36,548 bases of DNA, from the UHGV virus genome UHGV-0383210, one strand, 5' to 3'. Shown piece after piece: positions 11,370 to 16,870 of the stretch. The DNA comes from a virus. A model generated the notes under the pieces. The model worked only from the letters and a program-made list of their open reading frames with translations. It was not told the origin of the DNA and did no database searches. Within the stretch, counting starts at the first letter, position 1. Every line of letters starts with the position of its first letter. The position numbers and the translations under genes are program-made.

Positions 11370-11973
11370 ACCAGCGCGAAGACGATGTAAAAACGATGAA
11401 TGTCGGGAATGGTTTCACCCTGCATTCGCTAATCAGTGGTGGTGCTCTCCAGAGTGTGGAACCAAGATAGCACTCGAACGACGAAGTAAAGAACGCGAAA
11501 AAGCGGAAAAAGCAGCAGAGAAGAAACGACGACGAGAGGAGCAGAAACAGAAAGATAAACTTAAGATTAGAAAACTCGCCTTAAAGCCCCGCAGTTACTG
11601 GATTAAACAAGCCCAACAAGCCGTAAACGCCTTCATCAGAGAAAGAGACCGCGACTTACCATGTATCTCTTGCGGAACGCTCACGTCTGCTCAGTGGGAT
11701 GCCGGACATTACCGGACAACTGCTGCGGCACCTCAACTCCGATTTGATGAACGCAATATTCACAAGCAATGCGTGGTGTGCAACCAGCACAAAAGCGGAA
11801 ATCTCGTTCCGTATCGCGTCGAACTGATTAGCCGCATCGGGCAGGAAGCAGTAGACGAAATCGAATCAAACCATAACCGCCATCGCTGGACTGTCGAAGA
11901 GTGCAGGGCCATCAAGGCGGAGTATCAGCAGAAACTCAAAGACCTGCGAAACAGCAGAAGTGAGGCCGCATGA
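11359..11973 (+). CDS. ninG: NinG (Rap) recombination endonuclease (204 aa)
   Basis: [56 protein letters not shown] matches recalled lambda NinG. Confidence 0.9.
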
Positions 11974-12016
11974 CGTTCTCAGTAAAAACCATTCCAGATC
12001 ACAAGGGAGAAGGCGC

Positions 12017-12505
12017 ATGGGCATAAGAGAACTAAACCTCACCAAAGAACAGCACGAGTGGCTGAATGGCTGGCTTGAACTGTGGGGCGCATGGGTTTAT
12101 TCAGGTCGTCTGGAAAAGCGCATGAGCAGCGTAATAGCTAAGTTCATGGAGAGCGTAGAGCCGGGAAGAGTTATGACAAGGCCAATGTGTAATGATGATG
12201 ATGGAATGTTGATTTCTCAGGTCGTCGATTCCGTCATGTACATTGACAAGAAAGCCTTTGGCATCCTCCTCAGCTACTACGCCCACGGCTCTTCCAAGCA
12301 CGCCATTGCATCTTACTATCATCGCGTCGCAAGACCTCGCAAGATGTTATGCCGGGGCGGCGGGCGCATTCAAAAACCATCGCTCGCAACCTGTCGACGG
12401 GAAGTTGACGAAATCCTCAATGCCTCGTTGTTTATGATTTACCCGGTTCTGGATAGTGCGTTTAAAAACCGGAAACGTGTAGAGAAAATTAAACATGTAG
12501 CATAG
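12017..12505 (+). CDS. Q: Late-gene antiterminator Q, not lambda Q type; size fits a phage-21-like Q (162 aa from ATG 12017)
   Basis: Position after nin and before tR' and lysis genes; strong SD AAGGGAGAAGG; no similarity to recalled lambda Q. Confidence 0.6.
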   Translation: MGIRELNLTKEQHEWLNGWLELWGAWVYSGRLEKRMSSVIAKFMESVEPGRVMTRPMCNDDDGMLISQVVDSVMYIDKKAFGILLSYYAHGSSKHAIASYYHRVARPRKMLCRGGGRIQKPSLATCRREVDEILNASLFMIYPVLDSAFKNRKRVEKIKHVA

Positions 12506-12511
12506 AACGTG

Positions 12512-12545
12512 TTGACATCATTGAGCAAATGAGCAACACTATTCG
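12512..12545 (+). promoter_or_regulatory. Putative late promoter pR' (TTGACA -35 at 12512-12517) with qut region
   Basis: Consensus -35 hexamer immediately after Q stop; -10 element not confidently placed. Confidence 0.35.
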
Positions 12546-12550
12546 CATAA

Positions 12551-12592
12551 GCTGCCGTTAGTGACTCTTAAGTTGCAACGGTGGCTTTTTTT
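12551..12592 (+). terminator. Putative tR' terminator (end of short late leader transcript)
   Basis: GCTGCCGTT ... AACGGTGGC imperfect hairpin followed by a run of seven T. Confidence 0.5.
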
Positions 12593-12596
12593 ATTT

Positions 12597-12671
12597 GGGT
12601 CAGTCGTATAAAGGTCATTACGGAAGGCTGTTAACCTTCTTATCGTGGTTCGAGTCCACGCTGTCCCGCCA
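12597..12671 (+). tRNA. Phage-encoded tRNA, anticodon GUU (Asn) by hand fold
   Basis: Cloverleaf folded by hand: acceptor GGGTCAG/CTGTCCC (one T-T mismatch), anticodon stem GAAGG/CCTTC, loop CTGTTAA, T-loop TTCGAGT, discriminator G, CCA. Confidence 0.55.
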
Positions 12672-12676
12672 AATAT

Positions 12677-12752
12677 GCTGGTTTAGCTCCAATGGTAGAG
12701 CGGTCGCCTTGTAAGCGAATGGGTAGCGGTTCAAGTCCGTTAACCAGCACCA
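12677..12752 (+). tRNA. Phage-encoded tRNA, anticodon UGU (Thr) by hand fold
   Basis: Acceptor GCTGGTT/AACCAGC perfect, D-stem GCTC/GAGC, anticodon loop CTTGTAA, T-arm GGTTCAAGTCC, discriminator A, CCA. Confidence 0.65.
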
Positions 12753-12870
12753 TAACTGAGCCGTAGCCACTGGATGTCCTGAATTCATCAGTGATAGTTA
12801 TGCTGCGGTCTTCTTTTTCTCCCTTCCCAATATAAGAACTACGCAATCCGTTACTGGCGGAGGCGTTGCT

Positions 12871-13086
12871 ATGAAATCAATGGACAAAATCTCAACTGGC
12901 ATTGCCTACGGAACATCCGCTGGTAGTGCGGGATACTGGTTTTTGCAGTGGTTGGATCAGGTCAGTCCATCACAGTGGGCTGCGATTGGGGTGCTTGGAA
13001 GCCTTGTGTTGGGCTTTCTCACCTATCTGACAAATCTGTACTTCAAAATCAGAGAAGACAGAAGAAAGGCTGCGAGAGGTGAATAA
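12871..13086 (+). CDS. S: Pinholin, phage-21 S type, with dual-start motif (Met1 at 12871, Met4 at 12880)
   Basis: [71 protein letters not shown] matches recalled S21 pinholin. Confidence 0.9.
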
Positions 13087-13583
13087 TGCCTCCATCATTA
13101 CGAAAAGCCGTTGCTGCGGCTATTGGTGGCGGGGCTATTGCTATAGCATCTGTGTTAATCACTGGCCCAAGTGGTAACGATGGTCTGGAAGGCGTCAGCT
13201 ACATACCATATAAAGATATCGTTGGTGTATGGACTGTATGTTACGGGCATACCGGAAAAGACATTATGCTCGGTAAAACGTATACCGAAGCAGAATGCAA
13301 AGCCCTCCTGAATAAAGACCTTGCCACTGTCGCCAGACAAATTAACCCGTACATCAAAGTCGATATACCGGAAACAACGCGCGGCGCTCTTTACTCGTTC
13401 GTTTACAACGTTGGTGCTGGAAATTTCAGAACATCGACGCTTCTTCGCAAAATAAACCAGGGCGATATCAAAGGCGCATGTGATCAGCTACGGCGCTGGA
13501 CATACGCTGGCGGTAAGCAATGGAAAGGGCTGATGACTCGCCGTGAGATTGAGCGTGAAGTCTGTTTGTGGGGGCAACAATGA
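13086..13583 (+). CDS. R: SAR endolysin, phage-21 R type (T4-lysozyme-like with N-terminal signal-anchor-release domain)
   Basis: N-terminal [30 protein letters not shown] segment followed by lysozyme domain; matches recalled R21; ATAATG overlap with holin stop. Confidence 0.9.
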
Positions 13584-14017
13584 GTAGAGTAACCGTGATT
13601 ATCTCCGCTCTGGTTATCTGCATCATCGTCTGCCTGTCATGGGCTGTTAATCATTACCGTGATAACGCCATGACCTACAAAGAACAGCGCGATAAAGCCA
13701 CATCCATCATCGCTGATATGCAGAAGCGTCAACGTGATGTAGCAGAACTCGACGCAAGATATACAAAGGAACTTGCTGATGCTAACGCGACTATCGAAAG
13801 TCTCCGTGCTGATGTTTCTGCTGGGCGTAAGCGCCTGCAAGTCGCCGCCACCTGTGCAAAGTCAACGACCGGAGCCAGCAGCATGGGCGATGGAGAAAGC
13901 CCAAGACTTACAGCAGATGCTGAACTCAATTATTACCGTCTCCGAAGTGGAATCGACAGGATAACCGCGCAGGTTAACTACTTGCAGGAATACATCAGGA
14001 CGCAATGCCTTCGATGA
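13580..14017 (+). CDS. Rz: Rz i-spanin (ATG 13580 overlapping R stop; ORF-track start 13568 is GTG)
   Basis: N-terminal TM segment [20 protein letters not shown], coiled-coil body, position after endolysin. Confidence 0.8.
13779..13964 (+). CDS. Rz1: Rz1 o-spanin lipoprotein embedded in +1 frame of Rz
   Basis: [20 protein letters not shown] lipobox then proline-rich [14 protein letters not shown]; fully nested in Rz as in lambda. Confidence 0.75.
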
Positions 14018-14317
14018 TAGCGATAATTTTACTCATCATCCTTCACATCTGGCTCTGTAGACAGGGTGGTGATCACTTCTGGAGTGAATCCAGATTAAAC
14101 ATCTCATTGCTGATGCTTGAAGTTGAGCATCTGGCGCGCGGTAAGGGGCTGCGTTGAGATAAGAGCCAGTTCATTACAAAGCCTATCTACGGGTGGGCTT
14201 GATAATGAAACCGGAATTTATTCTGGGCAACCAGTTACGGCAGTACAGCGAAACAACCCAAGCCAGTAAGTGGGGAAATAACACTGGCAGCCACTGAAAG
14301 ATGAACCTCCAGCCTTA

Positions 14318-14756
<439 letters not shown>

Positions 14757-14792
14757 TACGGACTAATTGATGTATTGAATATTTCGAGCATA

Positions 14793-14813
14793 AATTGATG
14801 TGACACATCAATT
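14793..14813. promoter_or_regulatory. Perfect 10-1-10 palindrome AATTGATGTG-A-CACATCAATT, with an extra AATTGATGT half-site at 14765-14773; operator-like
   Basis: Read directly; lies 57 bp upstream of protease start codon. Confidence 0.6.
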
Positions 14814-14869
14814 ATTCTGGTGGATGAATTCATTATGATTTTTTCACACACCGGTATAGGAGCAAATCG

Positions 14870-15616
14870 ATGCATCAAACTCTAGCCAACGCAACTTTTC
14901 AGGTCATTGCAGGGGATTCTCGTGGTAGTGGGTTCAGCTTTATGCGAGAAGATCTGGTCGTAACCAATTTTCATGTTGTCGCCGCCTGCTGTAACTTGCA
15001 GAATCAGAATCTGCGTCAAATTAATCATGTAATCCTTCAGACTGAATCTAATGAGCATATAGAAGCTCAAATATTGTACATTGATGGTGACAACGACTTT
15101 GCGATTATGCGGTTGCAATCACCGCTTCCTGCCGGGAGAACAGTACTTCAACCATCCGTAGGATTTACTCCAACTCGAGGCAAAAAGTTAATCTTTGCCG
15201 GGTATCCGCATGGGCTGCCTCAATTGCTTACGAATGAAGGGATTATTTCCGCCCCTCTGGAAAGTGGGCGTTTTGCTCTTGATGGAATGGTTAATGGTGG
15301 AAATTCAGGCGGTCCAATTATTGACCGGGAAACGGGAGAAGCTGTAGGCATTGTTACTCAACGTCGATACATTCTGCCGCCTGATGCGCAGCAGCTCTCT
15401 AATGAAGTTGCTCAGCTTCGCGGCTATTTGGCGCAGGCAGCACAGCAAATGTCAGTGGAAGTCATGGGGGTTAACTTTGGACGAATGGCAGATATGTTCA
15501 GTCGCTCACTGCAAATGGTTAATGAAATGTTGAATCTTAATGCCAATCCTGGCATTGGGACTGGTTTCTCGTTAGAACCAATCGTAAATGCAGTTAATTC
15601 ACTTCCTCAACATTGA
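14870..15616 (+). CDS. Trypsin-like (S1/chymotrypsin-fold) serine protease, no signal peptide, about 85-aa C-terminal extension of unknown function
   Basis: Catalytic-triad motifs in order: TNFHVV (His), GDNDFAIM (Asp), GGNSGGPI (Ser); SD AGGAG 7 nt before ATG; N-terminus lacks a hydrophobic signal. Confidence 0.75.
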   Translation: MHQTLANATFQVIAGDSRGSGFSFMREDLVVTNFHVVAACCNLQNQNLRQINHVILQTESNEHIEAQILYIDGDNDFAIMRLQSPLPAGRTVLQPSVGFTPTRGKKLIFAGYPHGLPQLLTNEGIISAPLESGRFALDGMVNGGNSGGPIIDRETGEAVGIVTQRRYILPPDAQQLSNEVAQLRGYLAQAAQQMSVEVMGVNFGRMADMFSRSLQMVNEMLNLNANPGIGTGFSLEPIVNAVNSLPQH

Positions 15617-15645
15617 TCAAGCTGCGATTTAGTAAAAGACATAGG

Positions 15646-15673
15646 GCCACTGGCAAGTGCGAGTGGCTTTTCT
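15646..15673 (+). terminator. Putative terminator after protease gene
   Basis: GCCACT-10 nt loop-AGTGGC then TTTTCT. Confidence 0.4.
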
Positions 15674-15797
15674 ATTGCCGTCAAATGGGTAGCATCATTG
15701 TAATGGCTTTAACTTTAGGTGCAGAATTATGGTAAAACCGGACTTGGATTCCGTTGAATAAGAATGGTGACCATAACACAGAGTCACCACAGATTAT

Positions 15798-16163
15798 TTA
15801 TCCGCGCGCTTCGCGACCAGGCTCATCTTCATTAACGCGATAACGCCAATATCGCTCAGGCTTAACCCAAACCACTTTATCACCGCTTACTTTGCGGAAT
15901 TGGGTAATGACAGGTGTAGATAAAACAAGATTACCATCAGCATTTTCTTTCAGAAACTGCTCATTATCGAGTTTGACTAAATAATCAACTACGTCTTCCT
16001 GATACAGGCAACCGTCATATTCTAACTGAGCCATCATCCACTTCATCACGTCTGTAAGAGACAACTTGAGTGCGTTTGGGTTTACGGCTTTGGGTTGGTA
16101 GCAGTCAGTGATTCTTCTGGAAATCTGGCTCTTTCTTGCTTTCTTCCTGAAAACCACTGACAC
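15798..16163 (-). CDS. Hypothetical protein (121 aa as ORF; may start at internal Met 16046 giving 83 aa)
   Basis: ORF convergent with protease gene; N-terminal 82 nt overlap the upstream gene out of frame. Confidence 0.4.
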   Translation of the reverse strand: MSVVFRKKARKSQISRRITDCYQPKAVNPNALKLSLTDVMKWMMAQLEYDGCLYQEDVVDYLVKLDNEQFLKENADGNLVLSTPVITQFRKVSGDKVVWVKPERYWRYRVNEDEPGREARG

Positions 16164-16291
16164 CAGTAATCACCAACAAAAACATCAAAGCTGTTTATGA
16201 TTGGCTCCTGAATAGCCATCGCCGGGCCGCCTGAAACCAAATAAACAATGTCGCCGATTTTAAATTTAGGGGTACGTGGATTTTTTGACAT
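16082..16291 (-). CDS. Small protein of the YodC/DUF2158-like family (69 aa)
   Basis: KIGDIVYLVSGGPAMAI...YWCQWFSG fits the recalled GDxVxLxSGGPxM...CxWF pattern; SD AGGAAG 4 nt before ATG. Confidence 0.55.
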   Translation of the reverse strand: MSKNPRTPKFKIGDIVYLVSGGPAMAIQEPIINSFDVFVGDYWCQWFSGRKQERARFPEESLTATNPKP

Positions 16292-16318
16292 AAAGCTTCC
16301 TTTTTAAGAGAGAGATAC

Positions 16319-16870
16319 ATGGCACTCACCGACAAACAAGAAATGTTCTGTCGCGAGTACCTCATCGATTTAAACGCCACGCAAGCGGCTATTCGGGCGG
16401 GGTACAGCGCTAAGACAGCTAACCGTACCGCATCCGAAAACCTGTCAAAACCTGACATCAAGTTAAGAATCGCCGAACTGAAAGCGCAACGCAATGATCT
16501 TGTTGGTATTAATGCAGAATATGTGCTTAATCGCCTTATTGAAATCGACCAGATGGATGTGCTTGACATTCTCCTGCAAAACGGTGAGCTAAAACCCATT
16601 AAAGACTGGCCTAAGGTATGGCGCACAACGCTATCAGGAATGGATGTCATGGAGATGGTATCCGCAGATAGCGCCGCACTTCTGAAGAAAATCAAATGGC
16701 CTGATAAGGTTAAAAACCTTGAGTTGCTTGGGCGTCATGTTTCTGTTCAGGCGTTTAAAGACAACGTCAAAAATGAAGTGACTGGCGCTGATGGAGGACC
16801 AGTCAGAACAGAAATTACCAACTTAACGCCGGAGCAGGCTGCAGAGGCGTATAGAAAAATGATGGGCTAA
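16319..16870 (+). CDS. Terminase small subunit (183 aa)
   Basis: Immediately precedes large terminase; [30 protein letters not shown] resembles phage small terminase HTH N-termini. Confidence 0.7.

Follow-up and report, generated by a model that had tools for sequence, protein, structure and literature searches.

The window analysed here, the 36,548-nucleotide (nt) stretch of UHGV virus genome UHGV-0383210, is an E. coli prophage of lambdoid, P22/Sf6-like type. In the interval from the spanin genes to the small terminase gene (TerS) it carries a two-gene accessory module, or moron, that consists of a gene for a trypsin-like serine protease of 248 amino acids (aa), a 59-aa companion gene, the leader that separates the two, and a terminator. 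Our favoured reading, to which we give a probability of roughly 0.4, is that the protease lies latent inside the cell and acts as an effector in conflicts between phages or between phage and host, with a role in defence or exclusion. This proposal draws on the sporadic distribution of the family, its mobility, the purifying selection that it is under, its partial association with defence genes and islands, and the known anti-phage use of trypsin-like proteases. The protease gene has the following features.

14870-15616, plus strand: gene for the 248-aa S1 (HtrA-like) serine protease, with an ATG start
14858-14862, plus strand: Shine-Dalgarno sequence AGGAG, 7 nt 5' of the ATG, read from the sequence
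14972-14974, plus strand: codon of His35
15095-15097, plus strand: codon of Asp76
15305-15307, plus strand: codon of Ser146
15368-15538, plus strand: helical hairpin of about 57 residues (aa 167-223) at the position of loop L2, from the AlphaFold2 model and structure alignments

The catalytic core of the protein is that of an S1 peptidase. It matches the Pfam families Trypsin_2 (E=3.4e-20, aa 19-161) and Trypsin (E=2.3e-7), and in a phmmer search against the PDB its TNFHV, DNDFAIM and GNSGGP segments align on the His, Asp and Ser motifs of Deg1, Deg5 and HTRA3. H35, D76 and S146, the last within G144-N-S-G-G-P149, show no variation among 34 aligned family members, which come from many taxa. 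A first-pass annotation of the window had proposed an S1 fold with the three catalytic motifs in this order, behind a strong ribosome-binding site, and all of this is borne out; the fold is supported both by Trypsin_2 and by an AlphaFold2 model with two beta-barrels, and the GGAG of the Shine-Dalgarno sequence is kept in nearly all aligned leaders. The ratio of nonsynonymous to synonymous substitution rates (dN/dS) of the protease is 0.09-0.16 against homologues with unsaturated synonymous sites, which indicates that the gene is more than a chance open reading frame (ORF). An identical protein in the public databases is annotated as ‘trypsin-like peptidase domain-containing protein / S1 family peptidase’ and carries no further name.

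The N-terminal sequence MHQxLA(N/D)xTF is invariant, forms the first helix and strand of the model, and contains no hydrophobic segment. Because this N-terminus belongs to the fold, the protein has no signal peptide, as the first-pass annotation had stated; we judge this from alignment and model. On the same grounds the protease is predicted to be cytoplasmic, without an export signal. The family does include rare variants with extras (P0109 and P0131). A Photobacterium member has a C-terminal tail with a SEC-C-type CxC...C motif, and a metagenomic one carries a twin-arginine-like signal or anchor at its N-terminus; a cytoplasmic location therefore need not hold for all members.

The AlphaFold2 model, built on the family alignment, has a mean predicted local distance difference test score (pLDDT) of 88 and a predicted template modelling score (pTM) of 0.81. 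It predicts a chymotrypsin-type double-beta-barrel S1 fold that is closest to HtrA/DegS, in which a strand at 158-162 is followed by helices at 170-193 and 203-223, the last strand at 229-234 and a C-terminal helix at 236-244. The two central helices form the hairpin, which is flanked by the invariant RR165-166 and N224-A-N-x-G-I229. In HtrA enzymes a G-I-G-F-A-I-P strand closes the protease domain; we regard the invariant N224-A-N-x-G-I-G-x-G-F borne by the last strand of the model as its counterpart. Solved S1 structures cover just ~156-190 of the 248 residues of the protease, and the hairpin would thus be the unmatched part. The hairpin is kept throughout the family, and also by a wider tier of proteins of 255-275 aa. 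The ~85 residues that come after the Pfam domain are not an appended domain, since the hairpin lies between two strands of barrel 2 and the S1 fold then ends with its last strand and helix. What had first been described as a C-terminal extension of ~85 aa is thus better described as a helical hairpin at L2 plus the normal end of an S1 fold. Since loop L2 of HtrA shapes the S1 pocket and takes part in allosteric activation, a large insertion at this position makes the hairpin the obvious candidate for a lid or a sensor. The coding sequence also contains a palindrome with an 11-bp stem (TCTTAATGCCAATCCTGGCATTGGGA, 15535-15560, plus strand), which appears terminator-like in the scan; the stretch codes for the conserved NANPGIG, and the palindrome is probably a chance result of the codons used there.

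The family is rare. Members are found in 29 of 5,426 complete E. coli genomes (0.5%), all of them chromosomal, and a tblastn search of 50,697 phage records returned no close homologue of the protease and only two weak matches. A fold search of BFVD with the protease gave generic trypsin folds only, and plasmids yielded one archaeal match, with 36% identity. Every enterobacterial homologue examined (from E. coli, Citrobacter, Cronobacter, Enterobacter kobei and Buttiauxella at 44-99% identity, and from ~30 IMG/VR contigs) lies in the order lysis cassette, homologue, terminase. The flanks themselves vary. The upstream neighbours in the IMG/VR loci are endolysins, holins or Rz from at least four families, the endolysins being GH108, GH19 or T4-type lysozymes and the holins belonging to several families, and the small terminases downstream come from at least seven families (DUF2280, gp3, Terminase_4, Terminase_2, Nu1, Sf6-type and DUF1441).

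Rarity in E. coli, absence from the phage records and varied flanks together indicate that the gene is a moron, part of neither the lysis nor the packaging module. The slot between Rz and TerS had been recognized as a moron site in the first-pass annotation, and its occupant indeed varies in related phages; a conserved place in lysis or packaging, which would have spoken against that view, is not what the counts above describe. Two candidate roles were discarded. A head-maturation protease is rejected as a head module is already present in the prophage and the protease is missing from relatives that share this module, and a lysis accessory is rejected as the flanking lysis cassettes come from unrelated families. 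In E. coli PSS-11 (NZ_AP027694.1 1399288-1404205) the orthologous gene is split by an IS3-family element and annotated as fragments of 109 and 180 aa, which could reflect a fitness cost of the protease gene or could be chance.

Beyond the enterobacteria, a profile search of 1.84 billion representatives gave 58 clusters at E<1e-30, nearly all of 235-255 aa and matched end to end. The wider tier, of 255-275 aa, shares the hairpin and bears an (R/I)SANVGIG motif, and in large multidomain proteins the match is limited to the core (profile positions ~12-168). The distant full-length members, at ~40% identity, come from Alpha- and Gammaproteobacteria, Arcobacteraceae, Deferribacteraceae, Planctomycetota, Bacteroidota, Bacillota and Chloroflexota. 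An all-against-all BLAST of the flanking ORFs of 20 loci found no conserved neighbour of these distant homologues, and Pfam and PADLOC searches of 126 neighbours found mixed families and no recurrent partner. The lack of a conserved partner gene suggests that the protease itself is the common functional unit. Several of the distant loci have defence genes or mobile elements nearby.

Locus L009, 6959-7942: TIR protein immediately upstream of the protease
Loci L008 (5970-6896) and L095 (3970-4896): TIR protein two genes upstream
Locus L012: type I restriction-modification system directly upstream
Locus L010: PifA-like KAP NTPase directly downstream
Loci L089-91: AbiJ-domain gene downstream, and an AAA ATPase
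Locus L096: integrase/AlpA island beside smpB
Locus L088: IS110 island
Locus L016: integrase fragment

In the two distant members with a TIR gene (L009 and L008, also L095), which come from Pirellulales and Pseudohongiella, this gene lies upstream on the same strand, and by BLAST the two TIR proteins are dissimilar outside the domain. The pairing of TIR gene and protease may be recurrent.

In the enterobacterial lineage the protease gene is embedded in a compact unit with the following further parts.

14577-14756, plus strand: 59-aa companion gene for an orphan protein, conserved 5' of the protease
14757-14869, plus strand: leader between the 59-aa gene and the protease, defined by alignment
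14765-14773, plus strand: extra half-site AATTGATGT, a third copy of the palindrome arm
14793-14813, no strand assigned: perfect 10+1+10 palindrome AATTGATGTG-A-CACATCAATT
14824-14839, plus strand: near-invariant block ATGAATTCATTATGAT, also given as ATGAATTCATTATGA(T), from the leader alignment
~15644-15673, plus strand: intrinsic terminator, a GCCACU...AGUGGC hairpin followed by UUUUCU (terminator scan, z -2.7)

Of 33 IMG/VR loci, 24 have the 59-aa gene together with the protease, and so does every E. coli and Citrobacter locus examined; pairwise protease identity among these modules ranges from 49 to 100%. Its dN/dS of 0.14-0.29 indicates a real gene. The protein has no match in Pfam, NCBIfam, PHROG or PADLOC; its homologues form six clusters among 5.8 billion proteins, all enterobacterial. 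Its AlphaFold2 model is of low confidence (pLDDT 62), and the sole feature in it is a beta-hairpin at aa 34-56. The description of the protease as stand-alone cargo thus holds for the distant homologues, which are single genes, but not for the enterobacterial lineage, where the 59-aa gene and the leader travel with it.

The leader is 112-113 nt long in 24 of 25 aligned modules, the divergent L108 having 80 nt, and the alignment comprises 21 distinct leader sequences. The leader of the window is 77-81% identical to four related leaders, one of which belongs to a Citrobacter module whose protease has saturated synonymous sites (pS 0.83). Such identity despite saturation in the adjoining protease gene indicates that the leader is under selection. 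The operator-like palindrome that had been noted upstream of the gene is confirmed as perfect and as unique in the window; it was found in none of 100 shuffles, even allowing three mismatches, and related modules keep its outer arms and vary in its centre. Together with the extra half-site, three copies of the palindrome arm are present in the window, against 0.5 expected. A site of FNR/CRP type was considered for the palindrome and rejected, the spacing of the half-sites being 7 nt, not 4 or 6.

The most conserved part of the leader, across its 21 distinct sequences, is the block ATGAATTCATTATGAT, which combines the palindrome ATGAATTCAT with a -10-like TATGAT. By eye this hexamer has no -35 element in the leader. 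To judge from its sequence, the block could act as a promoter, and the larger palindrome would then be centred near -42, a placement that is speculative. Rfam has no match in 12400-16400, leader included, other than two tRNAs. In an RNAalifold analysis of 18 leaders the left arm UUGAUGU(A/G) pairs with the start region AUG-CAU-CAA, that is, with AUGCAUCAA. The analysis shows no covariation (term -0.01), and as every start-codon pair is invariant the pairing is neither supported nor refuted. TTGATG(T/C) occurs four times in 14757-14878, in forward orientation at 14767 and 14795 and as its complement CATCAA at 14806 and at 14873, in the start region ATG-CAT-CAA. The invariant Met-His-Gln codons can thus pair with either upstream copy, and the right arm of the palindrome mimics the start region. 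Read in this way, the TTGATG/CATCAA repeats may constitute a translational switch.

The hairpin terminator that had been predicted downstream of the gene is present, as a GC-rich hairpin with a U-run. Six homologous loci, with protein identity as low as 44%, likewise have such a hairpin and U-run just past the stop codon; their stems differ in sequence, with compensatory changes. The terminator travels with the protease gene. Right after it, at 15674-15712, is a second conserved stem, UUGCC(A/G)UCA ... UAAUGGC, which occupies the same place in loci L074, L003 and L002 and in most related modules and may be a tandem terminator or a boundary element.

The surroundings of the module in the prophage are as follows.

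11960-12505: Q antiterminator
12597-12749: two tRNAs, from the Rfam scan
From 12871: holin
From 13086: lysozyme
13568-14017: Rz
14431-14529, plus strand: relic of an o-spanin gene (3' half) from a different lysis cassette, without start codon and without lipobox, found by tblastn
15798-16291, minus strand: convergent pair of small genes, DUF6953 (phrog_10782) and DUF2158/YodC (phrog_3261), from Pfam and PHROG matches
16319-16870: TerS
From 16873: TerL
From 18495: portal

E. coli SCU-171 (NZ_CP054363) carries a near-identical prophage, with 99.1% identity in the slot. The slot between Rz and TerS is filled by two units: the protease module on the plus strand and the convergent DUF6953 and DUF2158/YodC pair on the minus strand, which is a second, independent moron that takes up the remainder. 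The 121-aa ORF overlaps the YodC ORF, and the RefSeq product in SCU-171 is a shorter, 79-aa DUF6953. In P22/Sf6/HK620-like relatives (HK620, Sf6, Sf101 and others) the shared sequence ends ~376 nt after Rz, and Rha, KilA-N or other genes follow. The GC content of the module is 0.40, against ~0.47-0.50 in its flanks. The o-spanin relic, a pseudogene remnant for the C-terminal half of this Rz1-type lipoprotein, is 66% identical over 35 aa to the 65-aa o-spanin of the Citrobacter prophage L083 (tblastn, E 1.7e-10), and the block that contains it is kept 5' of the 59-aa gene in all modules. Its position at the 5' edge shows that recombination brought the module in from a phage that had a different lysis cassette and in which the module came after that spanin.

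Other cargo is found in comparable positions. One IMG/VR contig has a Tad2-like (Thoeris anti-defence) gene upstream of the protease in the slot between lysis genes and terminase, and phage Huey has an annotated anti-CRISPR in the same slot, which may be a general hotspot for defence and counter-defence cargo. In loci L074-L081 (6857-7495) and in the IMG/VR loci L104, L115 and L120 a 212-aa PhageMetallopep (PF18894) gene lies just 3' of the protease, such that two putative proteases adjoin before the terminase. In other prophages a DUF2560 gene or an HNH endonuclease gene is found just 3' of the protease.

How might such a protease act in conflict? We propose that in the lysogen the L2 hairpin, as a lid or sensor, and the leader would hold it inactive or scarce, and that the small protein may contribute to this. 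On a phage cue the enzyme would cleave a host or phage protein, and as a result a superinfecting phage would be excluded or the infection aborted. The family as a whole would be a bacterial island gene that was captured by enterobacterial prophages and kept at one permissive slot of the late operon.

Several observations weigh against this proposal. In roughly half of the distant loci the adjoining genes are plain metabolic ones (for example hisIE, luciferase-like or nadD/bioD genes), and the defence neighbours amount to a small raw count, in ~5 of ~18 loci. The hairpin is the part of the AlphaFold2 model with the lowest confidence (pLDDT ~70-78), and its lid or sensor role, like the roles of the 59-aa protein, is pure inference. 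Defence-system models, which the first-pass annotation had singled out for comparison, gave matches that in themselves count in favour, at the level of the domain (best to the retron type XI RT-protease, RT-Protease_XI, at 1.6e-13, and to Avs1b; also to PDC-M35A), but no full-length system match and no conserved neighbours: the PADLOC matches cover aa 3-169 of the protease, leaving out the hairpin, and only the protease part of the models (for example 339-486 of 506). We found no paper on the family in the literature searched. The remaining points concern expression. The gene is oriented with the late operon, and a scan of 13900-16400 (2.5 kb) found no sigma-70-like promoter, against 4.7 +/- 2.5 sites in shuffled sequences; this deficit is a mild depletion that extends across the whole of that region. 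The protease may consequently be made only late in the lytic cycle of the prophage itself, which would fit a role in serving the phage better than one in protecting the lysogen, and the same slot holds anti-defence genes elsewhere (the Huey anti-CRISPR and the Tad2-like gene). Of the independent transcription unit put forward in the first-pass annotation, then, the terminator is shown and a promoter of its own is putative.

These points on expression are the basis of the strongest rival explanation, which we nevertheless consider unlikely: a phage-serving late function, in which protease made from the late transcript degrades a host defence or stress factor or otherwise conditions the cell, in the manner of anti-defence or host takeover. 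Orientation, the empty promoter scan and the anti-defence cargo of the slot all agree with it, as does the location of the gene at the lysis-terminase junction in every enterobacterial (pro)viral locus with flanks examined. It is harder to reconcile with the absence of the family from 50,697 sequenced phages, and with its occurrence as a single gene at non-phage chromosomal sites, beside defence genes and in many phyla, where an anti-defence gene would make little sense. In addition, the module has a conserved terminator and a constrained leader, as morons under independent regulation typically do.

A more elaborate form of the conflict hypothesis, which we regard as improbable in its full detail, is that of a minimal protease immune module. 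The hairpin would sense a phage cue directly, and the 59-aa protein would be either an inhibitor or a latent substrate or effector, a very small counterpart of protease-activated toxins such as Pepco. The leader would gate translation of the protease, as each of its UUGAUG repeats can pair either with the partner arm of the other or with AUG-CAU-CAA in the start region. If true, this would be a new, sensor-free architecture among protease-based defence systems.

The close linkage of the two genes, with a spacing that is nearly fixed over wide divergence, also brings to mind a toxin-antitoxin or addiction-like pair, a still more doubtful possibility. In such a pair the protease would be the toxin and the 59-aa protein or the leader RNA the antidote, and the pair would either stabilise the prophage or fire on shut-off of host expression, like ietAS. 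Serine-protease toxins are known, ietS of the protease/ATPase pair ietAS being one as cited in PMC13069673; the palindrome is of a kind typical of autoregulated operators, and the IS3 disruption in PSS-11 is consistent with a cost. Yet the palindrome lies between the two genes rather than 5' of the pair, and no DNA-binding or antitoxin domain was detected in the 59-aa protein. Nor does the antidote seem to be required: Buttiauxella L003, with an 88% identical protease, has lost the small gene and kept protease and leader intact, and all distant family members lack the small gene. The identities of the small protein and the protease across modules are, moreover, only weakly correlated (Spearman 0.12).

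Least likely of all is an ordinary cytoplasmic housekeeping or quality-control protease that is passively carried and has no role in conflict: the closest folds are indeed those of the quality-control proteases HtrA/Deg, and some homologues lie among metabolic genes, but the family is sporadic and rare (the 58 clusters and 0.5% of E. coli genomes given above), is linked to prophages, integrases, insertion sequence (IS) elements and defence genes, and lacks a PDZ or chaperone domain, and the combination of strong purifying selection with horizontal transfer speaks for an accessory function that is selected.

The significance of the module depends on which of these readings is correct. Trypsin-like proteases are emerging as common switches in bacterial immunity, and the systems described so far join them to a sensor and a death effector, either by fusion or as neighbouring genes. 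A protease of ~245 aa that moves alone between prophages, islands and phyla would differ from these. If it protects against phage, sensing and execution would be combined in one small protein, or in that protein and its 59-aa partner, and the lysis-terminase junction of lambdoid prophages would join the cargo hotspots that are worth mining. If it serves the phage, it would be one of the rare cases of an intracellular S1 protease that a phage encodes and turns against its host.

Among known enzymes, the protease is most similar to HtrA, DegS and DegP (MEROPS S1C), with which it shares the His-Asp-Ser order, the TN.HV, D.A(I/L/V) and GNSGGP motifs and the terminal G-I-G-F strand. HtrA proteins have one or two C-terminal PDZ domains, whereas the protease has no PDZ match in Pfam or NCBIfam; they have an export signal or membrane anchor, of which alignment and model show none here, and they lack its ~57-aa helical hairpin at the L2 position. 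Scores against the NCBIfam models are far below the cut-offs, at 44.6 bits against 416.2 for degP_htrA_DO and 26.9 bits against 422.95 for DegS. HtrA is, further, a core envelope-stress gene, whereas the protease is encoded on prophages and islands. We therefore place it in peptidase family S1 (PA clan), in an HtrA-like branch outside canonical HtrA/DegP/DegS.

Lit of prophage e14, to which the first-pass annotation had compared the protein, is likewise a prophage-borne intracellular protease, and the protease may share with it the part of an abortive-infection effector. A zinc metalloprotease with the HExxH motif, Lit cleaves EF-Tu in the presence of the Gol peptide of T4. The protease is of the serine type, with no HExxH in its 248 aa and S1-type families as its sole matches in Pfam and NCBIfam, so the likeness is limited to the proposed logic.

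Anti-phage systems repeatedly employ trypsin-like proteases as effectors or activators (PMC12642450, PMC12799240, bioRxiv 10.1101/2025.09.03.673762). The trypsin-like domains of such systems, in retron type XI, Avs1/Avs2, Hachiman-trypsin-MBL and protease-Pepco/EACC1, are likewise cytoplasmic and of the Trypsin_2 type, and are likewise found on mobile elements or near defence genes. The small gene immediately 5' of the protease is placed as is Pepco, which is encoded upstream of a protease-Avs4 (PMC12642450). In contrast to these systems, the protease has no fused or adjacent sensor (reverse transcriptase, STAND NTPase or helicase), and, in contrast to linked protease-effector modules, no MBL, alpha/beta-hydrolase, Pepco or EACC1 match was found among its neighbours with Pfam and PADLOC. 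By its sequence, it falls outside every described protease-containing defence system.

As a piece of phage cargo, finally, the module resembles the lambdoid morons (bor and lom of lambda, and the ‘ant moron’ of P22-like phages, PMC2629481). Like them it is inserted between genes that are adjacent in relatives, has its own terminator and a lower GC content, occupies a slot with variable contents, and is dispensable for lysis and assembly. Lambdoid morons have their own promoter; in the protease module the leader is strongly constrained and contains the -10-like TATGAT, and the sigma-70 scan of 13900-16400 is empty. A cargo composed of a solitary protease, a small orphan protein and a constrained leader is undescribed in the literature searched, and it is the solitary architecture with its L2 hairpin, and the constrained leader of nearly fixed length, that set the module apart from its known counterparts.

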